Positions 1,136 through 49,800 of a stretch of 53,024 nt of DNA are shown one piece after another; the first letter of the stretch is position 1, and the number at the start of each line of letters is the position of its first letter. The DNA is taken from NCBI GenBank assembly GCA_000934665.2, contig JYFJ02002667.1:1-53024 (forward strand), given 5' to 3'. A program made the position numbers and the translations under genes. The stretch is from Catajapyx aquilonaris (lineage: Eukaryota). Below the pieces are notes generated by a model, which did not search any database, had not been told where the DNA came from, and was given only the letters and a program-made list of their open reading frames with translations.

Positions 1136-4100
1136 CCTGAAGTGATGGAAACAATAGTTGAAGACACGTGTGGGAGTGACTCCGACTTGGACGACAGGAG
1201 TGAAATCCAGGCTGGGGTGGAACCTGCCCCCAAACGCACCATTCCTGAGGAGAGATCAGGAAGGAAGAGGGCGCAAAGAAAGGTGAGATGCGAGTTTGTA
1301 GCAAGACACAAGTTCTGAAACTATTCCTTTTCAGGTGATTGTCCAAGAAGATGAGTCCAGTACAAGAAATTCAAAAGCATCTCGAGAAGTTTTAAATCTC
1401 AGTTTGCTAAATGTAAGAGAACACCTCATCTTGTTGTGATTCCACAGTTGCATTTCCCTTTGCAATGTTAAGTAAAATCCCCGCTTGTTTAGGAGGAGGT
1501 GCCAGCAAGAGTAAGGAAGTCAAATCTGGTTGCTCAGGTCAAGATGACGGAGCAGAGCCAGACAGGCAGTGAGGACGCGATTCTAGCCGATGACCTCAAG
1601 ACTTCCAGTGCAAAGGACAGGGAACCAAAACCAATGGTAAGTCTCATTTTCCGTCATGAACAGGAAGAAATTATGCTTTTAAAAAATATATATGCTACAG
1701 GCCTACCTTGAGCAGATGAGGTCATATTTCCTCTACTTTTAAATATCCTTTCCAGCCGACCTCTGGAAATGGAAAAAGCCATAAGCCAAGCAGCTACTCA
1801 CTGGCCTTCAAGGAAAAGGTGCTTGATGCGTACGAGTTTGGCAATTCCAAATGTCGTCACAATTATGATGCAACTGCAAAGAAGTTTGGAATAAGCAATT
1901 TTGCAGTGAGGTGTTGGGTGAAGACCATGCGGCCTCACCTCCTTGCCTGCAGACAAAAGGAAGATACTGATCAGATATCTAGGAATGGGAAAAGGGTAAG
2001 ATTTGTCAGATTATTAAACAAAAAGGATAAGGACTCAACATCACTCAGAATAATTAGTAAATCAGCCACATGCTTGAGTGCTGCTAAGAAAGAGATCAAT
2101 GTTGGATAGGTACAGTTATGTACTACTGGGATGTTTGTTTTTTCACCTCTTGAATGCAGCCAAACTCCAGGAAACTGCGAATCTCCACGTCATCTCAATA
2201 CTCCCTGGATTTCAAAGAAAAGGTGCTGGAGGCCTACCAGTTTGGTGATTCCACATGTCGTCACAACATGACGGCAACTGCAAGGAAGTTTGGCCTACCC
2301 CATCAAACAGTGTGGCATTGGGTCAAGCTTCTCCAGCTCCGTCTCCTTGCCCAATCAGGCCAGAGTCAGGCCTACAAATCAAGGCGAGGCAATCATGAAT
2401 CTCATGAAATGCAGGTAAATGAACTATTTCTCTTGTCATCATACATTTGTTGGGACTTGCTGAAATGCCAAGACTACGGGCTTCTTGTCTACGGTGTGCA
2501 GTTAATTATTTTGCCAAAAATACAGGGCTCTCACAGGTCAGCAGATGGGCACACATTGTCTAGCGATTCCTCCTGGAGCGGAATGCACTGGCACCACGGG
2601 TGTGGCAGCCTCTCCCAGGCCCCCCAGGAATCCCGTTTTGGTGGTGCAGGGCGCCCACTCCCGGACGACTGCTTCCTGTTCAACAATGTCCTCGAAATGG
2701 CAATTGGGAAGGGGTTTTTTCATAGATCCGAACAGGTAAAAGTCACTGGGAGCCAGTCTGGGGTAGTACGGCAGATGTGGCGTCATCTACACCCGGATCC
2801 ATGGAAAAATCCCTTCACCGACACCATTTCAAGGACATTGTTGACAGTTGTTGACTGTGACCAGTTCTTTTCTTAGCATGTCATGGCAAAAACTATGTAA
2901 ATAATAATGCACATTTTCCTTCTTTTCGGGGAGAAAAATTATATTTTCGTTTGATCTGCTGCCATCCGGGGTCACCCACCTATCAACCACCAAAATATAT
3001 ATTATAATGTACGTTCCTATAATGAATTTTTCTACTCTTTCTAGTACTGTACACTACGCCAATTGTCTCGAATTGCAACAGGAAAGGGGGTTCTAACGTG
3101 TTGGGCCGTTGGTTTTTTTTTTGGTGGGTCGGGAACAGGTACAAATCGTATGATCATCGCGGCTAGAAAAATTACCGAATGTAGGCTTTAAAAAAATAGC
3201 GTGAAATAGCGAGGCGGAAATACTGTCCAAGTGGGGGGTGCACAAGAAGGGGGCATTTTCTGGCGGATTCCGGGTCCCTTGTTCATATGTAGCATTTATT
3301 TGCATATCGTTTTTCGCACTTTTGCAATTAATTGATGCATGTTTTTCCGTGCTTAGCCAGCAGGTTCAAGGCACAATTTATATGGACCAAACAGGCGGTC
3401 AGATTGATGATAGGCACTAAATGCTGCACACTGGCAGTCTGGCATTAGTCTACAAAGGCCGATGCACCGTCGCCAGCGGGCCGCGTCAAGATTTGCATTG
3501 TAAAATAATGAACTATAATAATAAACTACAACAAAAAAAAATCCATGAAAACGCACATATATTTCAATATAAAAATATGACAATGACAAAATAACAGGTG
3601 GTTAAGACAAATCATGACATCACATCCGCCCGCGAAATTCAAACACTACCGTATCACTACCGTAAGCGGTGCGTTGCCATCATTAAATATGGCTGTTACA
3701 AAAAAAATTGAGGGTGATGGAAACTTTCTGACTTCATATTTGGAACCAGCGCATATGAATGCATTAGAAACAGATAACATTGTTCATGTGCCGAATTCCT
3801 TGTTGACTAGTGTAATTTTAGTATGACCCTCCTATTTTTACAAAATAGCATGAACTTTTCCCTGACTGATTTTCCAACCCTAATAATTGGACAGGTGTCA
3901 TTTCGTGGCAATTGCAACACCGACCTGGCCTATTAGGATTTGAAACAATTATTATCAATTATTATGTATCTTACAAGGTTTAGGCGTAACATTGGGAAAT
4001 ATGTGAGTTGAGGGTCACGTTCGAATTCCATCATGAACATGAAGAAATTACATTTTAAAAGAAATGGTGCATCAGGCCTACCTTGAGCAGTGATATTAAC

Positions 4101-7100
4101 TTGACAACTGAACTGAACTGAGGCTGTATGATTTCCTCTACTTTTAAATTTCTGTTGCAGCCGACCTCTGGGAAAGTGACAACCCGTAAGCCACGCTTCT
4201 ACTCACTGCCCTTCAAGGAAAAGGTGCTTGATGTCTACGAGTTTAGCAATTCCAAATGTCGTCACAATGCATATGCAACTGGAAAAAAGTTTGGAGTAAG
4301 TGACTGTACCGTGAGCCGTTGGGTGCAAGCCATGCGACCTCATCTACTTGCCTGCCAACGAAAAGAAGATGCTCATCAGATGTTAGGGAATAGTAAAAAG
4401 GTAAGCCTCATCAGGTAATAATTAAGCAATGAAGAAGATGGATTCAATATTATGGGTAATAATATATTGCTAAATCAGCCACATACATCAGTGCTGGAAA
4501 GATAGCGAAAGATTGTATTGACAATATATTATGTTCTGAGATGTTTGTTTTCCATCTCTCCTGCAGCCAAACTCAGGGGAACTAAAAATCCGCAAGTCAT
4601 ATAATTACTGCCTGGATTTCAAGAGAAAAGTGCTGGAAGCCTACAAGTCTGGTGATTCCAAATGTCATCACAATGCAGCTGCAACTGCAAGGAAGTTTGG
4701 CTTACCACCAATAACAGTGTCGTCTTGGGTGAAGTTTCTCCGACCCAGTCGCCTCGCCCGTTCTGCCCAGAGTCAGGTACGTACCAATCAATGCCAGGCA
4801 GAAAGGAGTACGCCGTGGTTTTCTGTGGTTTCCCACGGTCCTTCCAGGAAAATTCCAGAGTTGCTTCCACAATTAATAGGCCACAGCCGCTTCCTTCCGT
4901 CCCTATCCTATCCTAAAAAGAGCACAATAAAATGAAAGCAAAGAGTTCCAGGCAAAACAAAAATTTCCCCCCTATAGAGCCATCGGCTGATAACGGGGTA
5001 TGAATTATTATTATTATTATTATAAATATAAACCTTGAATTTTCTACGACCTTTGCAGGAAATCAACAAGAGTGTGAAAAGACAGAGATCACACTCTCTG
5101 GACTTTAAAAATAAAGTTCTGGATGCCTATGAGTTTGGTGATTCCCCATGTCGTCACAACCAGAACGCAACTGCAAGGAAGTTTGACTTGAGCCAGGGAT
5201 TGTTGTGGATATGGCTGAAGCAGCTCCGACCCCGTCTCCTTTCCCGTTCAGCCCAAGGTCAGATGCACCAATCAAGAGGAGACGCTGATGAAAGAACAAG
5301 TGGCAATCCAAGTGTAAGAAATTGACTCTTATGGTTACTCACTGTCAGTGATGACAGAAAAAATGGAGATTCCCAGATTATTTTCTCTTCACTTACTTAA
5401 GAGCCTTTCACAATCGTTCAGGGGGTGGTGAGGGGTGGGTGATCGGGAGGGGTTTGGGCTGGAGGGGAGGAAAGACCGTACCTATAAGACTCGAGGATTA
5501 TAGGTCCGGCTTTTCCTCCCCTCCCGCCCAAACCCATCCTGATTACCTCACCACCACCTGGACAATAGCGAAAGGCTCTTAAGTAAGTGAACAGACAATA
5601 ACAAGGGACGTGCATGTTTGACCTAACATTGACAACTAATATTTCTGATAACCATGTGACAGGTACCTACTCCTTATACATTTTTAAAAAACATGCTAAC
5701 CCCTACGAAGAATCCACTTTGAACATGCTCAAGTCTCTCGGTTAAGCAAGTGTTTCTCGTGGAAGAAAAGTGGCTGTAAAGATGGGTCGCAATTCCTTTT
5801 CAAAGGCCTCGCTGCATTGTTGTCTGCTTTCCAGGAAGAGGATATATATTCTAAAACTAATCCTTTTCAGGCCAATGTCCAAGAAGATGACCGCAGCACA
5901 ACAAACTCAAAACCATCTCGACATGTTTCAAAACCCAGGCTGCAAAATGTAAGAACATTTGGACAGTGCTCTGCAATAATGAGTCAACCCGCATGAGAAC
6001 ATTGTTGTGAGAAAAGGGCTTTGAAGGTCACACCTCACTTGGAATTAATTCAGTGTCCTTTTCGGTCATTCATGGCAGATTTCGCTTGCTAGATTTTAAC
6101 TTGATCAAGTGCGATCCTTTGGGCATCCTGGGATTAGCTCAATTTCGACATTTTTGTTGGTTGACACTTTATTCTATGACACCTTCCATTTCGTCAGGAG
6201 TGACTTATTGCTGATTGGAGAGTTGCATTTCTCTCGACAAATTTGAGTGAATTCCATGCCCGTTTAGGTGGAGGTGCCAACAAGTGGAAGGAAATCAAAA
6301 CTGGTTGTTCAAGTTAAGATGAAGGAACAGAGTCAGGGAGACAGTGAGGACGCGATCACCGATGATGGCCTCAAGACATCCGGTGCAAAGGACAAGGAAC
6401 CAAAACGAATGGTAAGACTCATTTTCTGTCATGAACAGGATGAAATTACTTTAAAAAAACTATGCCAACTGAGGCTGTAAGATTTACTCTACGTACTTTC
6501 AAATATCTGTTGTAGCCGACCTCTGGGAAAGGGACAATGCGTAAAAGCAAAGGCTACTCACTGCCTTTCAAGAATAGAGTGCTAGATGTCTACGAGTTTC
6601 ACAATTCAGAATGTCGTCACAATATAAATGCAACTGCTAAGAGGTTTGGAATGAGCTTTAGTGTTGTGAGCCGTTGGGTGAAAGCCATGCGACCTCACCT
6701 CCTTGCCTGCCATCCAAAGGAAGATGCTGATCGGACGTCAAGCAATGGGACAAAGGTAAGCCTCATCAGGTTATTAAGCAATGAGGATGTGGACTCAAGG
6801 TCATTGGAAATAATTACGAAAGCTGCTGTATACTTGAGTCCTTGAAGGAAAACGAGATCAATGTTGGATAGACAGGTATGTTCAAAGTTGTTTATTCTCT
6901 TTTGTCTTCGTCTTTTGCAGTCAAACGTAAGCAGTCTGCATATCCGCACATCATCTAAATACTCCCTTGCTTTCAAGAGAAAAGTGCTGGAGGCCTACCA
7001 CTTTGATGATTCCACATGTTGTAACAATGTGTCTGCAACTGCAAGGAAGTTTGGCTTGCCACCAATAACAGTGTGGCAGTGGGTCAAGGTTCTCCAGCCC

Positions 7101-7792
7101 CGTCTCCTTGCCCGATCAGGCCAGAGTCAGGCCTACAAATTAAGACGAGGCAATCATGAATCTCATGGAATGAGGGTAAAGGAACTATTTTTATTATCAT
7201 CATACATTCGTTGGGACTCGCTGAAATGCCAAATTCTTGTCTACGGTGTGCAGTTTTTTTCCCCCCCCTTTTGCTCCTTTGTCTCTTCTCGACGTAAAGA
7301 TGAGTTTTCTTGTGAGCGATTTGATCGCCGAGCGGTAACATCGCTGAGTAACCTGAGTAACCTGTGTTGTTGGAGGAGAAAATCGATTGTGACTGTCGAT
7401 GATTTAATTAAATTGGTAACCTCTACAAACATTCGACATTGAGAACATGCTCTAATTTTGTGTTCGGTAGTAGACTAGAGTAATTGCAAACTGGAAAGTC
7501 GCATGATCTTATTGTTATTTTTCGTTCCCTTCCCGTTCAGCCTGCCCAGAAGGAAGCGGAACCCTCCGGGTCCCTCACCCAGTCGATGGACCTGAAGAGG
7601 AAGGTGCTGGACGCATTCGAGTTTGGAGATTCCTCGTGTCGTCACAACCTGGAAGCAACTGCCAGGAAATTCTGTCTCAGCACCACCACAGTGTGGTACT
7701 GGATCAGATACATTCGACCCCACCTCCTCTCCAAGAGTCAGATGAACCCGCCAAGTCAACACTCTGATGAAAGGAATGTTGGTACAAAGTAA
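1136..7792 (+). CDS. Gene A (5' end outside window): multi-exon poly-Brinker-DBD protein, 8 HTH domains
   Basis: AG/GT-bounded phase-0 exons: 1136-1282, 1335-1412, 1493-1636, 1756-1995, 2160-2414, 4161-4400, 4567-4776, 5059-5313, 5871-5948, 6268-6411, 6516-6755, 6921-7175, 7541-7792 (stop). All lengths are multiples of 3 and open. Repeated YSLxFKxKVLxxYxxxxSxCRHNxxATARKFGxxxxxVxxWVK matches the Brinker DBD pattern. Confidence 0.8.
1756..1995 (+). CDS. BrkDBD exon A1 (type I)
   Basis: 240 nt AG/GT exon; helix GISNFAVRCWVK. Confidence 0.8.
2160..2414 (+). CDS. BrkDBD exon A2 (type II)
   Basis: 255 nt; GLPHQTVWHWVK. Confidence 0.8.
2520..2870 (-). mobile_element. Mariner transposase C-terminal fragment
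   Basis: PHLPYYPRLAPSDFYLFGSMK resembles mariner HPPYSPDLAPSD(F/Y)HLF. Confidence 0.8.
4161..4400 (+). CDS. BrkDBD exon A3 (type I)
   Basis: 240 nt; GVSDCTVSRWVQ. Confidence 0.8.
4567..4776 (+). CDS. BrkDBD exon A4 (type II)
   Basis: 210 nt, donor CAG|GTACGT; GLPPITVSSWVK. Confidence 0.75.
4813..5023 (+). mobile_element. 5'-truncated SINE
   Basis: Matches body and tail of SINE 8522-8826; (TTA)n tail. Confidence 0.75.
5059..5313 (+). CDS. BrkDBD exon A5
   Basis: 255 nt; DLSQGLLWIWLK. Confidence 0.78.
5378..5600. mobile_element. MITE-like inverted repeat (copies at ~16312-16470 and ~21850-22065)
   Basis: TTCACTTACTTAAGAGCC...GGCTCTTAAGTAAGTGAA inverted arms. Confidence 0.6.
6516..6755 (+). 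CDS. BrkDBD exon A6 (type I)
   Basis: 240 nt; GMSFSVVSRWVK. Confidence 0.8.
6921..7175 (+). CDS. BrkDBD exon A7 (type II)
   Basis: 255 nt; GLPPITVWQWVK. Confidence 0.8.
7541..7792 (+). CDS. BrkDBD exon A8 (invariant terminal domain)
   Basis: DLKRKVLDAFEFGDSSCRHNLEATARKFCLSTTTVWYWIR, ends in TAA. Confidence 0.8.
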   Translation, partial: PAQKEAEPSGSLTQSMDLKRKVLDAFEFGDSSCRHNLEATARKFCLSTTTVWYWIRYIRPHLLSKSQMNPPSQHSDERNVGTK

Positions 7793-8103
7793 ACAAAACT
7801 CTAAATGCAATGTGCAATTAGTTTGAGACATCGGGACCGCAATGTGACGGACAGATCTATTCCGTAAGACATTTTTTCGATTGTGCGTGATAATTACTTC
7901 ACCCTGTACAGCAGACTTCACTTATAACAGACGTCAAGGGATGGCGGAAATTAGTCTCCTCTAACAGGGTCTGTCATAGCGTAACACACAGGACAGATGT
8001 GGTGTGCAGATATGCTGGGACCAACCTTTTCAGGTTGTTGTAACCAAGGGTATTATATCTAGAGTCAACTGTACTAGAACTGAATGTATTAAAATTGTAT
8101 CAT

Positions 8104-9631: not shown

Positions 9632-9650
9632 GTGGAGACCTGCAGAGGGG

Positions 9651-10010
9651 ATGATGAGCCTCCAGCCGCATCATGGACCAAGCCTGATGGCCACCGAAGA
9701 AGGGCAGTTCAGGTGCGTCTACTGCCTGGACGCCACCTTCAGGACCAGGCTGCAGCTGAGGGCACACCAGTTCGTACACGGGCCCAGGGACGAGGTCAAG
9801 GTGGAGCCAGAGGAGGATGCGGCACAGGGAAGGGTGGTCGTCGTAACAACGGAGGAGGAGAGGCCAACTGGAGGAGGGGATCAGCCGCACCAGAAGGAGG
9901 AAGAGTCCGTCTTGAACTCTGGTGGTGGTGACCCTCCAGGAGAAGCTGAACCTTCATTCGAATTCATTTCCATTGACGGCTGGCCTGGACAGAACAGGGC
10001 ACGTGCAGAG
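9651..10010 (+). CDS. Gene B first coding exon: C2H2 zinc finger + acidic region
   Basis: FRCVYCLDATFRTRLQLRAHQFVH (C-x2-C-x13-H-x3-H), then VKVEPE; donor GAG|GTAACC. Confidence 0.8.
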
Positions 10011-13000: not shown

Positions 13001-16000
13001 TTGTGCTCGCCCGGCAACCGATTGTTTGCAACCCGTAACCAACATGTTTGGAGGGCACCCTGCTGTGCCGCGTCACTAGGTGCAGATAAACGATAGTATA
13101 ATCCAGCGCCACATTGAACTTGAGCTGTAGAGTTTTTAATGTCAAGAAATGAGGGCAATGTGAATGCACAGAAATGTTCATTGAACCTATTTTAAACGCC
13201 ATTGTGGTATTTCAGGGAGTCGAAAGTGTCAGAGCAGAGCAGCCTGCTGTGATGGAAACAATAGTTGAAGACACGTGCGGGAGTGACTCGGACTTGGACG
13301 ACAGGAGTGAAATCCAGGCTGGTGTGGAACCTGCCCCCAAACACACCATTCCTGAGGAGAGATCAGGAAGGAAGAGGACGCAAAGAAAGGTGAGATGCGA
13401 GTTTGTAGCATGACACAAATTCTGAAACTATTCCTTTTCAGGTGATTGTCCGAGAAGATGAGTACAGCACGAGAATTTCAAAAGCATCTCAAGAATTTTC
13501 AAATCTCAGTTTGCAAAATGTAAGGCCACACTTCATCAGGAATGACTTGTTGTGATTCCACACAGTTGCATTTCCCTTTGTAAGGTTAAAGTATAATCCC
13601 CGCTTGGTTAGGAGGAGGTGCCAGCGAGAGTAAGGAAGTCAAAACTGGTTGCTCGGGTCAAGGTGACGGAGCAGAGCCAGGCAGGCAGTGAGGACACGAT
13701 TCTAGCCGATGACCTCAAGAAATCCAGTGCAAAGGACAAGGAGCCAAAACCAATGGCAAGTCTCATTTCCCGTCATTAACTGGAAGGAATTATGCGTTTA
13801 AAAATATATGCTACACGCCTGCCTTGAGCAGATGAGGTCATGTATTTCCTCTACTTTGAAATATCCGTTGCAGCCGACAACTGGAAAGGAGAAAACCCAT
13901 AAGCCACGCACTCACTCACTGGCCTTCAAGGAAATGGTGCTTGATGTCTACGAGTTTGACAATTCCAAATGTCGTCACAATTATGATGCAACTGCACACA
14001 AGTTTGGAATAAGCGCATGTGCTGTGACGTATTGGGTGAAAGCCATGCGACCTCACCTCCTCGCCTGCCAACCAAAGGAAGCTGCCAATGAGATGTCAAG
14101 TAATGGGACGAAGGTAAGCCTCATCAGATTATTAAACAAAAAGGATGAGGACTCAACATCACGCAGAATAATTTCTGAATCTGCTGTATGATTGAGTGCT
14201 GGAAAGAAACAGATCAATGTCGGATAGGTACAGTTATGTACTGAGATGTTTTTTTTTTCACCTCTTAAATGCAGCCAAACTCCAGCCATCTGCATTTCCG
14301 CACATCACCTTATTATTCACTGGATTTCAAGAAGAAAGTACTGGAGGCCTACAAGTCTGGTGATTCCAGATGTCGTCACAACGTGACGGCAACTGCAAGG
14401 AAGTTCGGCCTACACCAACAAACAGTGCGGAAATGGGTGAAGTTTCTCCTGCCCCGTCTCCTTGCCCGATCAGGCCAGAGTCAGGCGGACCAATCCAGGC
14501 GAGGCAATCATGAATCTCATGAAATGAGGGTAAAGGAACTATTTCTCATGTCATCATACACTTGTTGGGACTTGCTGAAATGCCAAGTCTATGGGCATCT
14601 TTTCTAAGGGGCGAGTTAAATTTTTTGCCAAAAATACATGGCTCTCACATGTCAGGTGGGAACATATTATCGAGCGATTCCTTCTGGAGCCTAATGCATT
14701 GGCAGCACAGGGGTGCCAACCTCTCCTAGGCCCTGCATGAACCACATTTTGGTGGCTCGATGGTCGGCGATGGCAAACCTTGTCATCTCGTACTCCTCCA
14801 AAGCGCGAATAATTTGGGCTAAGTTGTATTGGTTTTTGCACAGCTATTCAAACCGTTTCACCACCGCACCGGGTACAATCGGAAGAACAATTTCGACTGT
14901 AGAACGGCTGATTCCCTGTCCAGGTTGCCAGGGAACCAGTTCAGACCAAATAATTTAAAAAGCGCGTGGGCAACAGGGAACCAACTGTTCTATTTCGGAA
15001 GTTCTCCCTCCGATTGTTCGAGGTGTGTTGGTGAAACCGTTTAAATAGCTGTGCAAAAACCGATAGCCCAAATCTCCGGCCATTTGAGCCTAAATCGTCT
15101 CAAACCATCGCAGTAAGACTTGACGTCGACAGATTTACCAGGAGGGAGAAACTCCATATGCACAATTGCATTTTTTTAAACCGACGCATCAGGCTTACCT
15201 TGAGCAGTGATATTAACTTGACAACTGATGCTGTATGATTTCCTCTACTTTTAAATTTCTGTTGCAGCCAACCTCTGGGAAAGGGACAACACACAAGAGA
15301 CGCATCCATGCACTGCCCTTCAAGGAAATGGTGCTCGATGTCTACGAGTTTAGCAATTCCAAATGTCGTCACAATGCATATGCAACTGGAAAAAAATTTG
15401 GAATAGGTGACTGTACCGTGAGCCGTTGGGTGAAAGCCATGCGACCTCATCTACTTGCACGCCAACGAAAAGAAGATGCTCATCAGATGTTCGGGAATAG
15501 TAAAAAGGTAAGCCTCATCAGGTAATAATTAAGCAGTGAGGAAGATGGATTCAAGATTATGGGTAGTAATAATAATAATAATGATGTTAGTGGAAGAGAG
15601 AAAGATTGTGTCGAGAATATAACATGTTTAAGATGTTTGTTTTCCACCTCTTCCGCAGCCAAACTCAGTGGAACTGCATATCCGCACCTCTCATAAATAC
15701 CCCCTGGATTTCAAGAAAAAGGTTCTGGAAACCTACGAGTCTGGTGATTCCACATGTCGTCACAATGCGGCTGCAACTGCGAGGAAGTTTGGCTTAAAAG
15801 GAATAACAGTGTGGTCTTGGGTGAAGTTCCTCCGACCCCAGCTGCTTGCCCGTTCAGGCCGGAGTCAGGTACGTGCCAATCAAGGCGAGGCAGAAAGGAC
15901 GAGTCATGAAATGAGGGTAAATGAACTATTATTTTTTTAAATAGCCACACTTCTGCTGGGAGTTGCAGAAATGCCAATTCCATGGAAAATTTGGGTTCCT

Positions 16001-36000: not shown

Positions 36001-39000
36001 CTGAAAATCCGCACATCTTGCTACTCCATGGAATTCAAGAAAAAAGTGCTGGAAGCCTACGAGTCTGGTGATTCCAAATGTCGTCTCAATACAGTTGCAA
36101 CTGCAAGGAAGTTTGGCCTACACCAACGAACCGTGTGGCAGTGGGTGAAGTCCCTCCGACCCCAGCTGCTTGCCCATTCAGCCCAGAGTCTGGTACGTAC
36201 CAATCAAGGCCAGGCACTCGTGAAAGGAGAAGGCATGAAATGAGGGTAAATGAACTATTATTTTCCTAAATCACCACACTTCTGCTGGGAGTTGCAGAAA
36301 TGCCAATTCCATGGAAAATATAGGTTGCTCTTTGCTCCTTTGATTCCCTACGAGTATAAGAAGGGGTGCTGACAGGTTGTGTTTGACATGAATGAGGCGA
36401 GAATCCATTCAAAGTCTGTGTCTTGGGCAGTTAGGGGGGCAGTTCAAAAGAATCGAAAAGGCACCCAGAATGTGCGCATTTTAAAATGCCAAGGGTGCAA
36501 ATTAATTTCCTGCCACAATATGAAGCCACTGATATGCCCACAAGGGATTTATTTTTAAAGATTATATTATGTTGGTTGTAGAGAAGATCCCGGATAATTC
36601 GATCTCTGATTATTATCCGACTCCTCTGATTATCCCGTGTTTTTTGTGTTCCTACCATGCCCCGCTCCCGTGGGTGATGGATAATCGGGTTTCTACTGTA
36701 CATGTTTTGGAACAATCATTATAAATAATATTGATCTCGCACAGTTGAGGTGTAACAATTTGAAATATGTTCGAATTCGTTTTCCATCATGAACAGGAAG
36801 AAATTACCTTTTTTTAAAAAAAAACCTATGCATCAGGCCTACCTTGGGCAATGATGTTTACTTAATGACTGATGATGTCAGATTTCCTCAACTTTTAAAT
36901 ATCCATTGCAGCCGACCTCTGGGAAAGGGACAACCCGCAAAAGACGCATCCACTCACTGGCCTTCAAGGAAAAGGTGCTTGATGAGTACGAGTTTGGTGA
37001 TTCCAAGTGTCGTCACAATGGAAGTGCAACTGCAAGGAAGTTTGGCATAGATGAAAGTGCTGTGAGGCGTTGGGTGAAAGCCATGCGACCTCACCTCCTT
37101 GCCTGCCAACCAAAGGAAGATGCTCATCGGATGTTAGGGAATAGGAAAAGAGTAAGCCTCATCAGATTGTTATTAAGCACAGAAGAAAATGGTTTCAAGA
37201 TTATGGGTAGTAATTACTAAATCAGTCATATACATCAGTGCTGGAAGGAAAGAGAGCGAGATTGTGTAGACAATATATTATGTTCTGAGATGTTTGTTTT
37301 CCACCTCTTCTGCAGCCAAAGTCAGGGAAATTGGAAATCCACACGTCATCTTGCTACTCCCTGGATTTCAAGAAAAAAGTGCTGGAAGCCTACGAGTCGG
37401 GTGATTCCAAATGTTGTCACAATGTGGCTGCAACTGCAAGGAAGTTTGGCTTACCACGAGTAACAGTGATGCAGTGGATGAAGTTTCTCCGACCTCGGCT
37501 GCTTGCCCGTTCAGCCCAGAGTCAGGTACGTACCAATCAAGGCGAGGCAGAAACGACGAGTCATGAAACGAGGGTAAATTAACTGTTTCTTAAAATAGCC
37601 ACACTTGTCCGGTTGTTCCACAAAACCCTTCAATGGGGAACTAGCCTTCATTTTAGAAACTACATAATAAATTCGCCCATATTTTTTGGATTTTTTTGGC
37701 ATATTTCGTTTTAAGAAATCAAGTTCCAGTTCCGGAGTAATTTGGGTTTTTTCGAAGGAAAATGGTGACGTCACTGTTTTCCTCGAAAATGTTGTCGTCA
37801 CGGGAAGTGAAATGAACGCAAAAATGATGTTATAGAACGCGCCCCGGCAGGGTCGTAAAATAATTCCTTGTACTGTGCTGGACACGGCTGGACATTTGAG
37901 CAGTCCAAGTGTTTACTTAGTTGCCAGGTAACGGGCGAGTTTTTACTCTAAGGCCGGGTTGCACCGGCTCCCGGAAAATTTGCCTAGCCGAAGAAGAGCC
38001 AAGATAGTTTGTTATTCATTGTTGACATCATTGTTGACAACAATGAATAACAAACTATCCTGGCTCTTTTTCGACCGGATAAATTTTCCAGGAGCCGGTG
38101 CAACCCAGCCTAAGCCACTCAAACCGCTTTGTACAGTACGTGGCAGTGATGCCACCAGCTCGGAAATATCTGTCTCATGAATTAGGCACATGAATTTGAC
38201 CCTTTTCCACCTCGATGGCCTACAGCCGCCTTGCGAATGCTTTCCGTCGTGTCCGCGGTTAATTCAAAGTCAAATTCCTCATATCTCGCTGTCAACCAGG
38301 CATTTCAGTGTACACTTTCGCTTGGCACCACCCGGCCGCCCTGTTTTTCCCGCCAATTCTGAAGGCACTTTTGAATGTGCCGTAATTTATCCAGTAATGT
38401 CATTTTGATGCAACAGAGTGATGGAATGTATGTTTACAGGCATGGGCTAGCTAGTTATGAACAAAAATCCCAAATCCCAGACCAAGGCTAGATCCCCATT
38501 CCTACATGTGCAGGATAGTCTCTAATTATATGTCGATTGAATAGTTATTCCCCCTTTAAAGAAGCCAAATTATTTGCCAAGCAATGTTATGCAAGAATCT
38601 GCAAAATATGTTCCAATATATTCCAGGTGAATGATTTCATATGCTGCATTTCTGCTGGCTTGAATAATTTTTATGAAAGGCCTTCTACATCACTGAGCAA
38701 TGTTGGACATGCTTATGCTGAAAATACTACGCCAACATTAAGGGTTCAGGAAGGGATGTTTCATGATTGTGTGACAGATTCCTTTTCCATCATGTACAAG
38801 AAGAAATTGTGCAAAAGAAACTTTGCTAACATGACCAGTGACGTTAACTTGACAAGTGCTTATGTAAGATTTTAATTTCGTAATGTAGCATATTATATAT
38901 TTATATTACGGCCAACTTCTCAGAACAGGACAATCCACAATAGACGCGTGTACTCCCTGGCTTTCAAGAGAAAAGTGCTGGAGGCCTACCAGTTTGGCGA

Positions 39001-40632
39001 TTCCTCATGTCGTCACAATGTGATGGGAACTGCAAAGAAGTTTGGCTTAAACAGAGGTAATGTATGGGTTTGGGTGAATCACCTCCAGCCACGTCTCCTT
39101 GCCTCCTCGGGCCAGAGTCAGAGGAACCAACCAAGGCGAGGAACTCTTGAAAGGACAAGTGACGAAGCGAGGGTGAGGATGTGACTGTTTCTATTGCCAC
39201 ACTCTTGTTGGGGCTTGCTGATATGACGAGTTTCTAAACTTCTTTTTCTGTGGGGTGCTTTTAGTCCTTTGTCTCTCATCAGAGTAAGGGGAAGTAAGGG
39301 GGCTTTGGTGCACTTGAGCCCCTCAAAAATATTGAGTGTTTCTATAGATTTCCTGAATCTACGTGATGAGCTGAGTTGATTGATACTATACGTATGTTGC
39401 AGAAACCTTTGGTTCAAAAGTTTTGGACTTTTGAAATTGCAATGAATTAACAATCAGTCAACAAAAGTTGTTGTGGCCTTGCCAGGGCCACCTCACGCAG
39501 CATCAACAGCTACTGTGCCACACAACCGCCAGTAATGTTGTGGATGCACAGCCTACAAATTACTTTTCAAATTACGATGGGAATGCCCTCATGCAACAAC
39601 AGGAGTAAACAGTTTCAACAAAGGAACACCGATTTCTTGTCATTCGTTGATTGTTAATTAAGTGCAATTTCAAAACTCAATAATTACTCTTGAAGGAAAC
39701 GTTTCTCCACCCTAGGGATAGTGCCAGTCGACTCAGCTCGTCGAGTAGACTCAGGAAATGTATGGACACCTGCACTGTTTTTGCGGGGATAAAGTGAACC
39801 CTTATCGACATGTTTTCATATCTCTCCTGGCTGACCTTCTATCTGAATCTGCCTGAAGTGAGCTTGAAACCATTCTTCAGCTGTAACTTAATCTTCAAAG
39901 AACTCATGTGTTCATGATGGTTGGTTCCAGAAGAAGACGAGATGTGGTAATGCCAACTCAGGTGACCTCGCACCAGATGGGGAACAGGCATCCAAGTCAA
40001 CGTTGCCTGCTGAGGGAGAAAAACCGAAGGGAGTGCAAAAGAAGGTAAGACCAGATTTTGTAGGAGGGAGGAACGAGTAAAAGTGATCCTCTTCAGATGA
40101 TGATTCAAGGAGATCATGATATTATAATAAACTCTTAGCTGCATATCCGGCCATCAGCGTACTCTCTGTTCCAAAAGAAATGGAGGAGCAAAATGCAGAT
40201 TTCCAGACAATAAAATGATGCACATATTCCACCCAACATTTGCAGCTAATAAGTGTGATAACATTAAAACGTAACTGATCCAAGGTTACTGCTTATCATG
40301 CAAAAAAAGATTTGTTAACTGCACATATGTGTGATATTTGAATTGCTTTTGTTGCCCTTCCTGTGCAGCCTCCCCAGAGGGAAGCGGAACCCTCTGGGTC
40401 CCTCACCCAGTCGATGGACTTGAAGAGGAAGGTGCTGGACGCATTCGAGTTTGGAGATTCCTCTTGTCGTCACAACCTGGAAGCAACTGCCAGGAAATTC
40501 TGTCTCAGCACCACCACAGTGTGGTACTGGATCAGATACATCCGACCCCACCTCCTCTCCAAGAGTCAGATGAATCCGCCAAATCAGGACTCTGCTGGAA
40601 GGAGGAATGACGGAACAAAGGTGGGGAAATAA
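32705..40632 (+). CDS. Gene C: C2H2-ZF + 7 Brinker-type HTH domains
   Basis: Exons 32705-33070, 34516-34689, 34743-34820, 34911-35054, 35170-35409, 35571-35780, 35986-36192, 36912-37151, 37316-37525, 38912(or 38924)-39172, 39931-40044, 40369-40632; phase 0, open. Confidence 0.78.
33098..33725. mobile_element. piggyBac-like non-autonomous element
   Basis: TTAA|CACTTAACTACC ... GGTAGTTAAGTG|TTAA plus subterminal GTATTTTTCTACCCCAC inverted repeat. Confidence 0.8.
34288..34409. mobile_element. PIF/Harbinger-like MITE
   Basis: TTA|AGGCCATTTCAC...GTGAAATGGCCT|TTA. Confidence 0.7.
35170..35409 (+). CDS. BrkDBD exon C1 (type I)
   Basis: 240 nt; GIDSKTVRLWVK. Confidence 0.8.
35571..35780 (+). CDS. 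BrkDBD exon C2 (type II)
   Basis: 210 nt; GLPQGTVWKWVK. Confidence 0.75.
35986..36192 (+). CDS. BrkDBD exon C3 (type II)
   Basis: 207 nt; GLHQRTVWQWVK. Confidence 0.72.
36579..36700. mobile_element. pogo/Tigger-like MITE (paralogous copy 47093-47196)
   Basis: GGATAATCGGG(G)TTCTACTGTA terminus; same intronic position in C and D. Confidence 0.6.
36912..37151 (+). CDS. BrkDBD exon C4 (type I)
   Basis: 240 nt; GIDESAVRRWVK. Confidence 0.8.
37316..37525 (+). CDS. BrkDBD exon C5 (type II; alternative donor after 37573)
   Basis: 210/258 nt; GLPRVTVMQWMK. Confidence 0.75.
37952..38110. mobile_element. PIF/Harbinger-like MITE
   Basis: TAA|GGCCGGGTTGCACCGGCTCC...GGAGCCGGTGCAACCCAGCC|TAA. Confidence 0.8.
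38912..39172 (+). CDS. BrkDBD exon C6 (canonical acceptor mutated)
   Basis: GLNRGNVWVWVN; acceptor ATTACGG vs ATTACAG in paralog D4. Confidence 0.6.
40369..40632 (+). CDS. BrkDBD exon C7 (invariant terminal domain)
   Basis: CLSTTTVWYWIR; stop at 40632 or donor AAG|GTGGGG after 40620. Confidence 0.8.
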   Translation, partial: PPQREAEPSGSLTQSMDLKRKVLDAFEFGDSSCRHNLEATARKFCLSTTTVWYWIRYIRPHLLSKSQMNPPNQDSAGRRNDGTKVGK

Positions 40633-43492: not shown

Positions 43493-43510
43493 GAATATCC
43501 TGCAAAGGGG

Positions 43511-43807
43511 ATGAGTCTCCACCAGCCCCACCGTGGCCCGCTAATAAGCAGCATGGCCACCGAAGAAGGGCAGTTCAGGTGCGTCTACTGCCTGGACGCC
43601 ACCTTCAGAACGAGGCTGCAGCTGCTGTGCCACCAGTTCATACACGGGCCTGGAGACACTGTGAAGGTGGAGCCGAAGGAGGATGCCGCAGAGGCGGTCG
43701 TAACAATGTTGGAGACGGAGAGACGTGAAGGAGGGGATCAGTCGCACCAGAAGGAGGAACCTTCATTCGAATTCATTTCAATTGGAGGCTGGCCTGGACA
43801 GGGGGAG
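43511..43807 (+). CDS. Gene D first coding exon: C2H2 zinc finger
   Basis: FRCVYCLDATFRTRLQLLCHQFIH; donor GAG|GTGAGG. Confidence 0.8.
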
Positions 43808-46800
43808 GTGAGGGTCGGTTCATTAAAATGGCCTACCCTCCATACTTGGCATGGGAATGCCCAGGGGCGGGGGCAAAATTCCCCGGGCCCGCGTGACCCG
43901 GTAGTATAATATTAATAAGAGATGGATTTCCAGAAGGAAAGTATAAAAAGTGAGACACGATCGTAAATGGGGCAGCAGCGACTGATTTCCTTGGGAATGT
44001 TATGCCTTAATGCCACTCTTGCCCTGAAATTGAATTCCGACGACATCACTGACAGAATTCGCCCTGGATAGGAAGGCCGGACAAGTTGAGTTGACCAAGT
44101 AGTGCGCATGGGTATGTCTTATGTGCATCAGTGCATACAGGAATCACATGAGAAGATCAAGTATTTCATGTGCTGCATTCCAACAGTTTTGCCATCCTGG
44201 ACCAATTTGCCATAATTTACATACGGCTACTACAAAATTGTCGAAAGTTACCGGGTTATCGCTGCCTCGCCATATCTGTAATATGTTTGCGTGGACAGTA
44301 AATACAGCCTACGACTGATTATTATGGGAGTCCGGATTTTTAGGCAAATGCCTATTTAATTCATTAACAGTTGGGATGGTTTTGTGAAGAGATCTATTCA
44401 TTTCATAAGTGCCGAATGCGGGGAATGTAGGTTTTATAGTGCCTATAATGGCCTATTTCGTGGTTTTGGTTGACTTTCTGCGACTTTTCATGCCTACTTG
44501 GCCTTTTTTGGGATGGTTTTTGAACTTTTTGAGGCGATTTTGAGACTTTTTTTTGAAAAAATTCCAATTTCAGGACTTTTTGGGCTTATTTCTTCATATG
44601 CATGTTTGGTTTTTTTTAAAGAGTTTTTTTTGTGCTCCTGAAAGGACCAAAATGGTTCAGAAGTAATACTACAAGTCATGTTTGTGTGGCGCTTATGCCA
44701 AATATTTTTCTTAATTTTCCTCTTATTGTTCCAACCAGAGGAAAATTTAGAAAAATATTTGGCAACATATATTGTGCAAGTGGAAACTGGCTATACCCGG
44801 TAATAGAGTCCAGCACAAGTGATACTTGTTTGCACTGTGTGTCTTTTGCCCAAGTTTCCTAATTTCCTGTCGGTTGTTCGGGTTATGCTCTGGTTTGTGA
44901 CCTTACATTCATACTTATAAAATTATTCTAGCTTTTTTATTTTTGGTAACATTATCCTCCAGTATTTAAAAATGTGTGCCTATTTGAGGGTTTATTCGTG
45001 CCCATTTCTGGGTTTTTTCGTGCCTAAAAATCCGGACTCTACTGATTATGTTTCCCGATATAATCCCACTGCCTTTTTCTTGCGGACAGCAATTTCGAAC
45101 GAAAATGTTTAACTGTCACTGTCTGTATTTGAGCGAAGGGGGCCTGAATCTTTGTCGTCCATGGGGCAAGGCTCGACATGTCTCTGGCCCTGGCCATGCC
45201 AGTATGGTCTGTTTAAATATAAACCCTAGGGATGAATGAATGTTAATTGAACTGTCCTGAATGTAAAGTATACAACCTCATTAGAAATTATTGTGATGTT
45301 AGCTGAAGCTAATCCAGCAACGCATTCAACTTCAGCTTCAGAGCTTGTAATGCCATGAAATGAGGGCAATGCAAATGGACAGAAATGTTCACTGAACCTA
45401 TGGTATTTAAAAATTTAATGTGGTATTGCAGGGAGTCGAAAGTGTAAGAGCAGAGCAGCCTGATGTGATGGAAACAGGAGATGAAGACACATGTGGGAGT
45501 GACTCCGACATGGATAGCAGGGGTGAAATCCAGGCTGGTGTGGAACCTGCCCCCAAACGCACCATTCCTGAGGAGAGAGCAGGAAGGAAGAGGACGAAAA
45601 GAAAGGTGAGATGAGAGTTTGTAGCGAGACACAAATTCTGAAACTCTTCCTTTTCAGGTGACTGTCCAAGAAGACGAGTACGGTACAAGAAATTCAAAAG
45701 CATCTCGAGAAGTTTCAAATCTCAGTTTAAACAACGTAAGAGAACACTGCATCAGGAATGACATGTTGTGATTCCACAGTTGCATTTCTCTTTGCAAAGT
45801 TAAGTATAATCCCTGCATGTTTAGGAGGAGGTGCCAGCGAGAGAATCAAAGCTGCTTGCGCGGGTGAAGATGATGCAGCAGAGCCAGGCAGGCAGTGAGC
45901 GCACGATTCTAGCCGATGACCTCAAGACATCCAGTGCAAAGGACAAGGAACCAAAACCAATGGTAAGCCTCACTTTCCGTCATGGACTGGACGAAAATAC
46001 GCTTCAAAAAATTTATGGTACAGACCTACCTTGAGCAGATGAGGTCATATTTCCTCTACTTTTAAATATCCGTTTCAGCCGAACTCTGGAAAGGGAAAAA
46101 CCAGTAAGCAAAACAGCTACTCACAGGCCTTCAAGAATAAGGTGCTCGATGTCTACGAGTTTGACAATGCCGAATGTCGTCACAATTACGATGCAACTGC
46201 ACGGAAGTTTGGAATAAGCGCATGTGCTGTGAGGAATTGGTTGAAATCCATGCGACCTCACCTCCTTGCCTGCCGAGCAAAGGAAGATGCTCATCAGATG
46301 TTAGGGAATAGGAAAAAGGTAAGCCTCATAAGATTATTTATAAGCAAAGAGGAAGATGGATTCAAGATCACCGGTAGTAATTACTAAATCTGCCACATAC
46401 CCCATCAGTGCTGGGAAGAAAGAGAGCGAGATTGTCTTGACAATATAATATTATGTTCAAAATGTTTGTTTTCCACCTCTTCTGCAGCCAAAGGCAGGGG
46501 AACTGGAAATCCACGCGTCATATCGTTACTCCCTGGAATTCAAGAAGAAAGTGCTGGAAGCTTACCAGTCTGGGGACTCCAAATGTCGTCACAATGGAGC
46601 TGCAACTGCAAGGAAGTTTGGTGTACCCCAACAAACACTGTCGAAATGGGTGAAGTTTCTGCAGTCCCGTCACCTTCTCCAATCAGCCCAGAGTCAGGTA
46701 CGTACCAATCAAGGCCAGGCACTCGTGAAAGGAGAAGTCACGACAGGAGGGTAAATGAACTATTATTTTCCTAAATCACCACACTTCTGCTGGTAGTTGC

Positions 46801-49800
46801 AGAAATGCCAATTCCATGAAATGTGGGTTGCTCTTTGCTCCTTTGATTCCCTCCGAATAAGAAGGGATGCTGGCAGGTTGTGTTTGGCATGAATGAGACG
46901 AGAATCCATTCAAAGTCTGTGTGTCTTGGGCAGTTAGGGGAGCAGTTTCAAAAGAATCGAAAAGGCACCCAGAATATGTGCATTTTTAAATGCCAACGAT
47001 GCAAACTTATGCAAAGTAATGTTATACCACAATATGAAGCCAGTGATATGCCCACAAGGGATTTATTTTTAAAGATTATATTATTTTGGTTATACAGAAG
47101 AACCCGATAATTCGATCTCTGATTATCCGAGGCCCTTTTATGTGCTCCGACCATGGCTTGATCCCGTGGGTGACGGATAATCGGGGTTCTACTGTACATG
47201 TTTTTTGAATCCCTCTGGGCTCACATTTCTCACCCCTACATTTTTCACTTCGTTTGGGCCAACAAGTGTGCTCCTAGTCAGAGGAGATAGACTAAATATA
47301 CACCTTGAATTTTCCACCACCTTTGCAGGAAATCAAGGGGAGTGGGAAAAGATGTAGATCACACTCTCTGGACTTTAAAAATAAAGTTCTGGATGCCTAT
47401 GAGTTTGGTGATTCCTCATGTCGTCACAACCAGAGCGCAACTGGAAGGAAGTTTGGCTTAAACCAAGGAATGTTGTGTAGATGGGTGAAGCGGCTCCGAC
47501 CCCATCTCCATGGCCTTTCAGCCCAAGGTCAGATGCACCAACCACAACAAGATGCTGATGAAATAGCAAATGACAAAACAAGGGTAAGAATTTGACTCTT
47601 AACATTACTCAGTGATGGCAGAAAAAAATGTAGAATCGAGAGAAAGGAGACCAAAACTGGTTGCTCCGGTTAATGTGATGGGACAGAGTCAGGGAGACAG
47701 TGAGGACACAATCCTTGCTCACGAGCTCAACACATCCAGTGCAAAGGACAAGGAACCAAAACCACATGTAATAATTCCTTCATATGCAGGATAGTCTCTA
47801 ATAATATATAGATTGAACAGTTATTCTGCTTTAAAGAAGCCAAATTCGCCAAGCAATATCATACCACTAATTCCCTAATTCTGTGACGATGCTTTTATGT
47901 CCCGTCAACACTCATTGCCTTGATATAGTAACCATGGTTGATCACTTATGCCGTTCATTAGACGCCACATGGCGGTCAGAAAATGTGGGTTCCACTTCAG
48001 TGGAGGCGAGACACGTACTGATCATCATACCACTAGAAGCCTTATCCTCTCTGTATGCTTGTACTACTAATCCCCATATTCTCTCCGTCTGGCCCTGCTG
48101 AAATTGTTTAAGTGAATTTAAAGCTCAGCCATTTGCGGAATGCATTTAAGCGGCAAAATGTCAGGTGTGTCCAACCCCTCATATAGGGCTCATTATTCCC
48201 CACACTGGGGCTAAATTGACTTCGGAAAACACGGAATCCTTTTCTAGCATGGCAATTCTCTGCCGTACTTATGAAGATGTATACATCAAATCAATGCAAA
48301 AGTTAATTGCATTTTGGAGGGGGAGAGTCAAAGCTATACCTAAGCCCAGACTCTTTGATCACAGAAGACAATGAGGATATGTAAGATTACCATGCCGAAT
48401 TTCTGACATGTTTGCCGAAAATACGATGGCAACTTTATCTGGAATGGATGTTACATGAGTGTGTGACAGATTCCTTTTCCTTCATAAGGAGGAAGAAATT
48501 GTGTAGAAGAAACTATGCTAACATGACCAGTGACGTTAACTTGACAAGTGATTATGTAAGATTTTAATTTCGTAATATAGCATATACGTTTATATTACAG
48601 CCAATTTCTCAGGACAGGACAATCCACAAGAGATGCGTCTACTCCCTGGCTTTCAAGAGAGAAGTTCTGGAGGCCTACCAGTTTGGTGATTCCTCATGTC
48701 GTCACAATGTGATTGCAACTGCAAAGAAGTTTGGATTAAACAAAGGAACGGTGTGGTATTGGGTGAATCGCCTCCAGCCACGGCTCCTTGCCTCCTCGGC
48801 CAAGAGTCAGAGGAACCAACCAAGGCCAGGCACTCGTGAAAGGACAAGTGACGAAATGAGGGTGAGGATCTGACCGTTTCTATTGCCACACTTTTGTTGG
48901 GACTTGCTGATATGAGAAGTTACCAAACTTCTTTTTCTGTGGGGTGCTTTTTGCCCATTAGTCTCTTATCAGAGTAAGGGGAAGAAAAAAAAATGTATGC
49001 TGATAGGTTGTGGTTGACATGAATGAGGCAGAAGTCCATAAAAATGCTGGGCTTTGGTGCTCATTAGTCCCACAAAAATATTGCATGTTTCTTTAGATTT
49101 CCCGAATCTACTTGAGGAGCTGAGTCGAATGATTCTATTCGTAGGTTGCAGAAACTATTGGTTCAAAAGTTATTGAGTTCTGAAATTGTAATGAATTAAC
49201 AATCAGTCAGCAAACATTGTTGTAGCCTTGCCAGAGCCGCCTCACGCAACATCAACATCTACTGCGCCACACAACCGACAGTAATGTTGTGGATGCACAG
49301 CCTACAAATTACTTTTCAAATTACAACGGGGATGCCCTCATGCAACAACAGGAGTGAACAGTTTCAACAAAGGAACACTGGTTTATTTTCATTTCATTCA
49401 TTGTTAATTAAGTGCAATTTCAAGATTCAGTTGCCCTGGAATGAATCGTTTCTCCACCCTAGGGATAGTGCCAGTCGACTCAGGAAATGTATGGACACCT
49501 GGAATATTTTTGCGGGGATAAAGTGCACCCTTACCGACGTGTTTTCCTATCTCTCCTGGCTGACTTTCTTTCTGAAGCTGTCTGCAGCAAGCTTGAAACC
49601 ATGCTTCAGCTGTAATTTAATGTTCAAAGAACTCATATGTTCCTATGGTTGGTTCCAGAAGAAGACGAGATATGGTAATGCCAACTCAAGTGACCTGGCA
49701 CCAGATGGGGAACAGGCATCCAAGTCCACGTTGCCTGCTGAGGGAGCAAAACGGAAGGGAGCAGAGAAGAAGGTAAGGCCAGATTTTGTAGGAGGGAGGA

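Follow-up and report, generated by a model that had tools for sequence, protein, structure and literature searches.

The stretch of DNA analysed here, hereafter the window, comprises 53,024 nt of Catajapyx aquilonaris (assembly GCA_000934665.2, contig JYFJ02002667.1, positions 1 to 53,024, forward strand) and carries tandem genes built from many copies of a helix-turn-helix (HTH) domain of the Brinker family (BrkDBD, PF09607). The reading that we favour, with a probability of roughly 0.7, is that in these genes the scaffold of the domain is kept by purifying selection, while the face predicted to recognise DNA turns over faster than neutral, as would be expected if new DNA specificities were arising. 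Diversifying selection on this face had been proposed from the bare sequence in an earlier note (the original prediction), and several partly independent tests, namely site models, a partition test and paralogue pairs, now support it.

A six-frame scan with a hidden Markov model (HMM) built from the window's own open reading frames (ORFs) found 38 copies of the domain, each of about 50 residues and all on the + strand, with E <= 7e-25 for every copy and E >= 0.03 for all other stretches. Their cores start at positions from 1795 to 50208. The original prediction had also counted 38 domain exons, between 1756 and 48861; these limits are exactly the acceptor and the donor of domain exons, 37 of the domains lie between them and the 38th (exon 50166-50453) lies beyond, and the 15 helix strings quoted at that time were all found in the window. 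Each domain constitutes an exon of its own, with an open frame bordered by an in-frame AG after a pyrimidine tract and by an in-frame GT. The domain exons measure 207-261 nt, all of phase 0/0, and in the four terminal ones a stop codon takes the place of the donor. Pseudogenes were ruled out, since all 38 domain exons are open and have splice sites, and the scaffold shows a ratio of non-synonymous to synonymous rates (omega) of 0.39.

As regards family and fold, Pfam recognised BrkDBD in 34 of the 141 ORFs of at least 85 aa on both strands, and 31 of these reached the gathering score of 23.4 bits; in the ORFs with non-terminal domains (n = 34), 31 score 23.5-39.8 bits and three score 21.3-22.7. 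No other family passed its cut-off in these 141 ORFs, nor was there any match at E <= 0.001 to HTH_Tnp_Tc5, DDE_1, KRAB, SCAN or BTB, and HTH_psq gave no match at E <= 0.001 in the same set or at E <= 1 with four domains. Two Pfam hits, GATA (31027-31335) and NCD3G (46847-47107), remained below their cut-offs and were treated as chance. When a profile of 34 domains was compared with all PDB sequences, the match was 2GLO chain A (E = 4e-9, 45 of 59 positions), the next one having E = 0.18. This alignment puts the variable segment together with IHRRQIQKW of Brinker, as had been claimed; the counterparts of the variable helix-3 positions in Brinker helix 3 are H, R, R, Q and K, and those of the two residues after the CRHN motif are QR of GNQRATARKY. 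From work on the Brinker-DNA complex, helix 3 is reportedly the base-contacting helix of Brinker, and its motif (IHRRQIQKW or INRRQVQKW) occurs in 0 of the 38 domains. The AlphaFold2 model (predicted local distance difference test, pLDDT, 86.3; predicted template modelling score, pTM, 0.70) has helices at 7-19, 28-35 and 39-57. Its top structural match was again 2GLO (Foldseek template modelling score 0.71, E 0.059), to which VIA-align gave Z 7.7 (root-mean-square deviation 2.8, 57 aligned; next match 6.5, CENP-B 6.1), a value below 8 and thus only moderate for a small helical domain.

Codons were numbered from the Y of YSLAFK, over 51 codons, and the variation is concentrated in a hot set of eight (24, 25, 34, 35, 36, 39, 40 and 44), with a column entropy of 2.1-3.4 bits (mean 2.92), compared with a mean of 0.81 bits in the other 43 columns. 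In fact, the helix had been said to differ in nearly every domain, and 33 of the 38 eight-residue strings between FG and W are unique, the repeated ones being the terminal type (four copies) and two recent duplicate pairs. Codons 24 and 25, which follow CRHN and had also been described as variable, rank high in variability, with 10 and 13 residue types. Invariant positions are N23, T27, F31 and W41, and codons 33, 37 and 38 are kept hydrophobic or small (I/L/V/M, T/A and V/L, respectively), so that hypervariability affects particular positions and not the whole helix. In the AlphaFold2 model, helix 2 opens with codons 24 and 25, and helix 3 has codon 34 as its N-cap and codons 35, 36, 39, 40 and 44 at its positions 1, 2, 5, 6 and 10. 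This i, i+1, i+4, i+5, i+9 spacing would place the variable residues on one face of helix 3, with the conserved T/A37, V/L38, W41, V42 and the hydrophobic residue at 45 on the opposite face. Conserved basic residues (R/K at 29, 30, 43 and 46) flank the hot codons. The CRHN motif itself has variants: one of its codons is deleted at 28076, and CHHN (4606), CCNN (6960), CCHN (37355), CRLN (36022), CRYN (27678) and GRHN (35610) were also found, N alone being invariant.

The four terminal (T) domains (exons 7541-7792, 30655-30906, 40369-40632 and 50166-50453) behave differently. In all six pairs they show 0 of 51 residue differences and 2-3 of 153 base differences, whereas divergence is 14-38% in the introns upstream of them and 9-17% in the exon tails. 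Moreover, one clade of A-type domains (4200, 15307, 21159 and 26030) retains DCTVSR. These two facts underline that diversification is selective and not a general property of the locus: hypervariability is confined to five to eight positions, absent from the four T domains and weak in the DCTVSR clade. The terminal domain may act as an invariant anchor next to the diversifying domains.

The rate of change was related to neutral yardsticks without the use of a tree, in 16 phylogenetically independent paralogue pairs. The hot codons had accumulated 100.7 non-synonymous differences over 305.8 sites (proportion pN 0.329, distance dN 0.433), and the other codons a pN of only 0.063, with a scaffold dN/dS of about 0.4. 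In the same pairs, the pooled synonymous difference was 0.158 (dS 0.177), the flanking introns differed at 524 of 3357 aligned bases (0.156; K 0.175), and the linker parts of the same domain exons gave pN 0.165, dN about 0.19 and dN/dS 1.07. Compared with these three independent yardsticks of neutral change, the hot codons therefore evolve faster by a factor of about 2.3-2.5. In the pair 17947/23557, whose introns are 4% apart, 8.5 of 19.7 non-synonymous sites have changed in the hot codons, versus 1 of 97.7 elsewhere.

Tree-based tests were carried out with our own implementation of the Goldman-Yang codon likelihood, the log-likelihood (lnL) of which under M0 equals that of IQ-TREE (-2481.64), with omega 0.64. 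Site models were the check that the original prediction had suggested, and with them neutrality was rejected: M8 (omega 2.53, 19% of sites) improved on M7 (lnL -2349.77 and -2389.10; twice the log-likelihood difference, 2dlnL, 78.7), M2a (omega2 2.86, 14.5% of sites) on M1a (lnL -2350.63 and -2379.75; 2dlnL 58.2), and M8 on M8a (lnL -2376.68; 2dlnL 53.8). The codons with an M8 posterior above 0.99 were 24, 25, 34, 35, 36, 39, 40 and 44. The signal was found in subsets (2dlnL 14.8 in A-type domains, n=14; 35.4 in B-type and related domains, n=19) and was kept with a tree built without the hot codons (2dlnL 84.6). When the eight hot sites were allowed their own synonymous rate, their omega was 1.99 (versus omega = 1, p = 0.0015). 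For the ten sites named in the original prediction, where a dN/dS not above 1 or background would have spoken against selection, omega was 1.65 at codons 24, 25 and 33-40 (p = 0.0097), with 0.39 at the remaining 41 sites.

The way in which the domains are joined was examined in a single public run of unrecorded kind, which has 27% of the sampled words of 1500-10200 and whose contigs were aligned to 1401-21400. GT..AG ends were present at 11 of the 15 contig joints listed, and eight joints fall on predicted borders of domain exons: 4400|4567, 4776|5059, 5313|5871, 6755|6921, 7175|7541, 15868|16690, 17751|17911 and 18162|19082. The joint at 13754/5|13873/4 we read as GC..AG once its single ambiguous base is shifted. 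Joints at predicted GT..AG borders indicate that the exons are spliced in series into multi-domain transcripts, with the observed orders A to B to C to X to S and A to B to T, and a mutually exclusive (Dscam-like) choice was ruled out, since the contigs join adjacent domain exons in series. A further joint, 13387 to 19306, with GT..AG ends, bypasses 5.9 kb with six domain exons and represents either whole-block skipping or an ambiguous placement among near-identical X exons.

The joints also revealed linker exons E, X and S, which lie between domain exons, have phase-0 borders and recur across the locus; they are taken to evolve neutrally, given the dN/dS of 1.07 at the linker parts of the domain exons. 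In the E exon, an acidic tract (DSDLDD) precedes a basic one similar to GRKRAQRK that resembles a nuclear localisation signal. In addition, 1.8-3.2 kb downstream of each terminal exon there is a Z exon (9687-10010, 32744-33070, 43553-43807 and 51941-52213) that starts with ATG, encodes C-x2-C-x12-H-x4-H (Pfam zf-C2H2_4 16.2 bits, below cut-off) and an acidic tract, and ends in a conserved phase-0 donor; in the fourth copy (51941) a different, unrelated sequence stands where the others have their start. Each Z exon probably opens the coding sequence of the gene that follows. In our model, at least four tandemly duplicated protein-coding genes with spliceosomal introns lie in the window, each made of Z, then repeated modules [E X S A B ...] and then T, with 8 domains in alpha (its 5' end cut by the window), 18 in beta, 7 in gamma and 5 in delta. 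The beta joint 18162|19082 connects what look like two ancestral units. Since all exons are of phase 0/0, modules can be duplicated, lost or skipped with the frame kept. Array growth through exon duplication has a recent example at 35493-36305, where two adjoining short-B Brinker exons arose by the tandem duplication of 412 nt (2.0 copies, 84% matches). The features are given below, gene by gene; for all BrkDBD exons the basis is the match to the window-built HMM together with in-frame AG/GT borders of phase 0/0.

Gene alpha (5' end cut by the window):
1756..1995, + strand, BrkDBD exon A (ISNFAVRC); HMM E 9e-32, 240 nt, Pfam BrkDBD 28.6 bits
2160..2414, + strand, BrkDBD exon B (LPHQTVWH); Pfam 25.1 bits
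4161..4400, + strand, BrkDBD exon A (VSDCTVSR); joint 4400|4567, GT..AG
4567..4776, + strand, BrkDBD exon short B (LPPITVSS); joints 4400|4567 and 4776|5059
5059..5313, + strand, BrkDBD exon C (LSQGLLWI); joints 4776|5059 and 5313|5871
5871..5948, + strand, linker exon X, 26 codons, open, phase 0/0; joints 5313|5871 and 5948|6268
6268..6411, + strand, linker exon S, 48 codons, in-frame ATG inside; joint 5948|6268, paralogues
6516..6755, + strand, BrkDBD exon A (MSFSVVSR); joint 6755|6921
6921..7175, + strand, BrkDBD exon B (LPPITVWQ); joints 6755|6921 and 7175|7541
7541..7792, + strand, terminal BrkDBD exon T (LSTTTVWY) and stop, end of alpha; joint 7175|7541, unspliced contig 7725-8133

Gene beta:
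9687..10010, + strand, Z exon with ATG, one C2H2-like finger, acidic tract and phase-0 donor, putative first coding exon
13216..13389, + strand, linker exon E (acidic DSDLDD, basic GRKR), first beta module; donor 13389 used in a contig joint
13612..13755, + strand, linker exon S; joints 13519|13612 and 13754/5|13873/4
13874..14113, + strand, BrkDBD exon A (ISACAVTY)
14275..14529, + strand, BrkDBD exon B (LHQQTVRK); Pfam 39.4 bits
15268..15507, + strand, BrkDBD exon A (IGDCTVSR)
15659..15868, + strand, BrkDBD exon short B (LKGITVWS); joint 15868|16690
16690..16812, + strand, linker exon E; acceptor in joint 15868|16690
16866..16943, + strand, linker exon X; sequence paralogy
17270..17413, + strand, linker exon S; sequence paralogy
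17512..17751, + strand, BrkDBD exon A (ISSFALRY); joint 17751|17911
17911..18162, + strand, BrkDBD exon B (LPKATVMY); joints 17751|17911 and 18162|19082
19082..19255, + strand, linker exon E, long form; acceptor in joint 18162|19082
19308..19385, + strand, linker exon X
19475..19618, + strand, linker exon S
19736..19975, + strand, BrkDBD exon A (MSFSLVRY)
20134..20388, + strand, BrkDBD exon B (IPQQTVWK)
21120..21359, + strand, BrkDBD exon A (IGDCTVSR)
21511..21720, + strand, BrkDBD exon short B (LKGITVWS), recent duplicate of 15659-15868
22298..22420, + strand, linker exon E
22474..22551, + strand, linker exon X
22878..23021, + strand, linker exon S
23126..23365, + strand, BrkDBD exon A (IGSRGLRY)
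23521..23772, + strand, BrkDBD exon B (VNQPTVWH)
25991..26230, + strand, BrkDBD exon A (ISDCTVSR)
26403..26612, + strand, BrkDBD exon short B (VPQGTVRQ)
26829..26951, + strand, linker exon E
27005..27076, + strand, linker exon X
27393..27536, + strand, linker exon S
27639..27878, + strand, BrkDBD exon A (ISSRGLRF)
28037..28288, + strand, BrkDBD exon B (LPQPTVKH), CRHN one codon short
30106..30363, + strand, BrkDBD exon (LNIGMVWY); Pfam 21.3 bits, below cut-off
30655..30906, + strand, terminal BrkDBD exon T and stop, end of beta

Genes gamma, delta and a possible fifth gene:
32744..33070, + strand, Z exon (C2H2-like), putative first coding exon of gamma
34516..34689, + strand, linker exon E
34743..34820, + strand, linker exon X
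34911..35054, + strand, linker exon S
35170..35409, + strand, BrkDBD exon A (IDSKTVRL), gamma
35571..35780, + strand, BrkDBD exon short B (LPQGTVWK), gamma; in the 412-nt tandem duplication
35986..36192, + strand, BrkDBD exon short B (LHQRTVWQ), gamma; in the 412-nt tandem duplication
36912..37151, + strand, BrkDBD exon A (IDESAVRR), gamma
37316..37525, + strand, BrkDBD exon short B (LPRVTVMQ), gamma
38924..39172, + strand, BrkDBD exon (LNRGNVWV), gamma; the paralogue's acceptor is GG here, next in-frame AG 12 nt downstream
40369..40632, + strand, terminal BrkDBD exon T and stop, end of gamma
43553..43807, + strand, Z exon (C2H2-like), putative first coding exon of delta
45432..45605, + strand, linker exon E
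45658..45735, + strand, linker exon X
45825..45962, + strand, linker exon S
46079..46318, + strand, BrkDBD exon A (ISACAVRN), delta
46488..46697, + strand, BrkDBD exon short B (VPQQTLSK), delta
47329..47583, + strand, BrkDBD exon C (LNQGMLCR), delta
48601..48861, + strand, BrkDBD exon (LNKGTVWY), delta
50166..50453, + strand, terminal BrkDBD exon T and stop, end of delta
51941..52213, + strand, fourth Z-exon copy, possible start of a fifth gene leaving the window

The acceptor AG of the 48601 exon is GG at about 38912 in its paralogue, which suggests that the 38924 exon may be shortened or skipped.

Several points weigh against the reading of positive selection for new DNA specificities. All selection tests compare paralogues within one locus, and among paralogues gene conversion and multi-nucleotide changes can inflate site-model tests; the models were simplified (fixed topology and relative branch lengths, five beta classes), and the hot set was picked from the same data on which it was tested. 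The hot codons' own synonymous difference by the Nei-Gojobori (NG86) method is raised (pS 0.247), so that the like-for-like ratio is 1.44 and not 2.45. Per-site fixed effects likelihood (FEL) gave p = 0.02-0.054, only at codons 25, 35, 36 and 40, and at codons 34 and 39 beta was lower than alpha. The selected positions are the two residues after CRHN and helix-3 positions 1, 2 and 6, with weaker support for the N-cap and positions 5 and 10. Moreover, the four T domains lie under the Pfam cut-off (15.7 bits) and have no match at E <= 0.001. With regard to the transcripts, the kind of run is unrecorded, the joint 2257 to 4668, probably a chimeric contig, is non-canonical and links two paralogous B-type exons, and there are also one opposite-strand joint and one backward joint; these three anomalies imply that part of the contigs are chimeras or could be placed on more than one paralogue. 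Both the Z-to-E splice and the full-length isoforms are predictions of the gene model. Finally, DNA binding, differing specificities and a recognition code are what we infer from homology with the Brinker-DNA complex.

The alternative that survives best, an unlikely one, is relaxed constraint only, by which exposed residues drift on a constrained scaffold and no positive selection occurs. Exposed helix faces often tolerate change, the marginal FEL values and the ratio of 1.44 agree with this explanation, and sites 39 and 44 partly track the A and B exon types, that is, old divergence. Nevertheless, drift cannot exceed the neutral rate, and a hot-codon dN of 0.43 lies above the synonymous (0.177), intron (0.175) and linker (about 0.19) values, which argues against it. 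Furthermore, M8 was preferred to M8a, whose extra class is neutral, the partition test rejected omega = 1 in both forms (p = 0.0015-0.0097), and in the pair 17947/23557 non-synonymous change was nearly restricted to the hot codons.

Slightly less credit is given to the explanation that the selection, though real, acts on a face that contacts a ligand other than DNA, for instance protein partners or RNA; the arrays would then be adaptors or decoys rather than sequence-specific DNA binders. The hot positions are rich in small and aromatic residues (S 38, A 34, Y 22, F 17 and W 16 of 304) and have fewer R/K/N/Q than the HRRQ..QK of Brinker. Against this, in the closest solved structure, which is a DNA complex, the variable positions fall on helix 3 and on the beginning of helix 2, the flanking basic residues at codons 29, 30, 43 and 46 are conserved, and the spacing would set the variable residues on one face opposite the conserved hydrophobics. 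Very improbable, in turn, is an artefact in which gene conversion homogenises the scaffold and an older or more mutable helix-3 patch mimics dN/dS > 1. In its favour, the domains are paralogues in tandem, some segments were clearly duplicated in recent times, synonymous difference within the hot codons is raised (0.23-0.29), and two or more bases differ in 32 of 128 hot-codon comparisons. However, the conserved codons interleaved in helix 3 (37, 38 and 41-43) have an ordinary pS of 0.144 and a low pN of 0.072, and hot codons with a single difference show 43 non-synonymous versus 5 synonymous changes, which speaks against both a patch of high divergence or hypermutation and a mosaic left by gene conversion. 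Intron and synonymous divergence agree (0.175 and 0.177), so that the exons are not more homogenised than their flanks, and leaving the hot codons out of tree building did not remove the signal.

If the favoured reading of selection on a DNA-recognising face holds, each domain would, like Brinker, recognise a short DNA element by placing helix 3 in the major groove, and the array as a whole would read a long composite site. Duplication, together with positive selection on the contact residues, would keep yielding new specificities, possibly for targets such as transposons or satellites. KRAB and PRDM9 zinc-finger arrays follow this logic; here it would be carried out by an HTH that probably descends from a pogo transposase. 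Tentatively, and as a possibility rather than an expectation, the genes may represent an undescribed class of modular, fast-evolving DNA readers with about five hypervariable residues per module, exon shuffling and perhaps skipping, the T domain and the finger serving for anchoring or recruiting, and an arms race with transposons or satellites. To our knowledge, fast-evolving arrays of DNA-binding modules are almost only C2H2 zinc fingers, plus transcription activator-like (TAL) effectors in bacteria; an independent HTH case, if true, would mean that the strategy does not depend on the zinc-finger fold. The system lends itself to comparison owing to its one-domain exons, its internal neutral yardstick (linkers and introns) and the invariant control domain in the same proteins. 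The 34 natural variants of one scaffold could serve to map how five to eight residues set specificity and, if the relation of residues to bases is regular, to decipher an HTH recognition code. In addition, this gene family is not contained in the protein libraries searched here.

In fact, when the profile was run exhaustively against 1.84 billion representatives, 244 proteins scored E <= 0.001, all of them distant relatives and none a close family member; the top of these matches consists of arthropod Brinker-like proteins with 2-3 domains, the others being multi-HTH proteins and bacterial HTH repeats. Word-index protein searches with an A-type exon and the terminal exon gave no match, and neither multi-BrkDBD arrays nor a hypervariable Brinker helix turned up in a literature search. 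Brinker and the arthropod Brinker-like proteins (PF09607; 2GLO) have in common with the window domains the family, the fold and the pattern F.FK..VL..Y...C..N..ATA.K...W. However, the best Brinker-like matches (P0001-P0009) have 2-3 domains and an almost invariant helix 3 (IHRRQIQKW or INRRQVQKW), whereas the window genes have 5-18 domains, one per exon, 33 distinct helices in 38, CRHN in place of CKGN, and positive selection. They are paralogous relatives of Brinker, not orthologues.

The KRAB and PRDM9 C2H2 arrays are tandem modules in tandem-gene clusters, with a conserved scaffold, selected DNA-contact residues and a quickly changing number of modules. As in them, selection in the window is confined to the predicted contact positions of a conserved repeated module. 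Unlike them, the window modules are three-helix HTHs in symmetric exons of their own, separated by introns and long unconstrained linkers, and each gene has one weak C2H2-like finger and no KRAB, SCAN or BTB match. Pipsqueak-type PSQ repeats and other multi-HTH proteins (P0119, P0095 and P0122) also carry tandem HTHs of the same superfamily; the PSQ-type repeats are few and mutually similar, and the window domains have no HTH_psq match. We know of no hypervariable contact face in PSQ-type repeats.

BrkDBD heads Passer-type pogo transposases and the domesticated POGK as their N-terminal DNA-binding HTH (PMC7386202), and transposase-derived Brinker/CENP-B domains are reported to give long, specific motifs in human transcription factors (PMC13538051). 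Passer and POGK have a single BrkDBD, whereas the window has BrkDBD arrays with no HTH_Tnp_Tc5 or DDE_1 match; a pogo-transposase ancestry of the family is plausible. Pufferfish BrkDBD genes are reported in PMC4263296 (42 in Takifugu flavidus, 5 on one chromosome in Tetraodon), where Dpp/Brinker is the proposed link between the BrkDBD gene count and body size. No other publication on many vertebrate BrkDBD genes was found, and in the available portion of this one arrays, one-domain exons and helix hypervariability do not appear. These pufferfish genes may belong to the same family as those of the window.

Some minor observations were also made along the locus. A repeated open stretch in introns after B-type exons (2415-2873, 18250-18642 and 23766-24209), with the shared translation ...FLFNNVLEMA...SEQVKVTG... 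and no Pfam match, could be either a repeat element in decay or an exon not recognised as such. The putative first intron of beta holds inverted repeats at 10267-10741 and 10860-11873 (arms of 69 nt, 93%, and of 155 nt, 92%), which look like miniature inverted-repeat transposable elements (MITEs). A short element on the - strand at 10409-10447 recurs at 51-107, which suggests another Z exon just upstream of the window. No part of the window matched Rfam at gathering scores. Finally, the summed word depth of the public run reaches 2141 at 4736-5402 and 684 at 8071-8737, versus 0-34 elsewhere, which points to high-copy repeats, and a palindromic element lies within 5400-5600.

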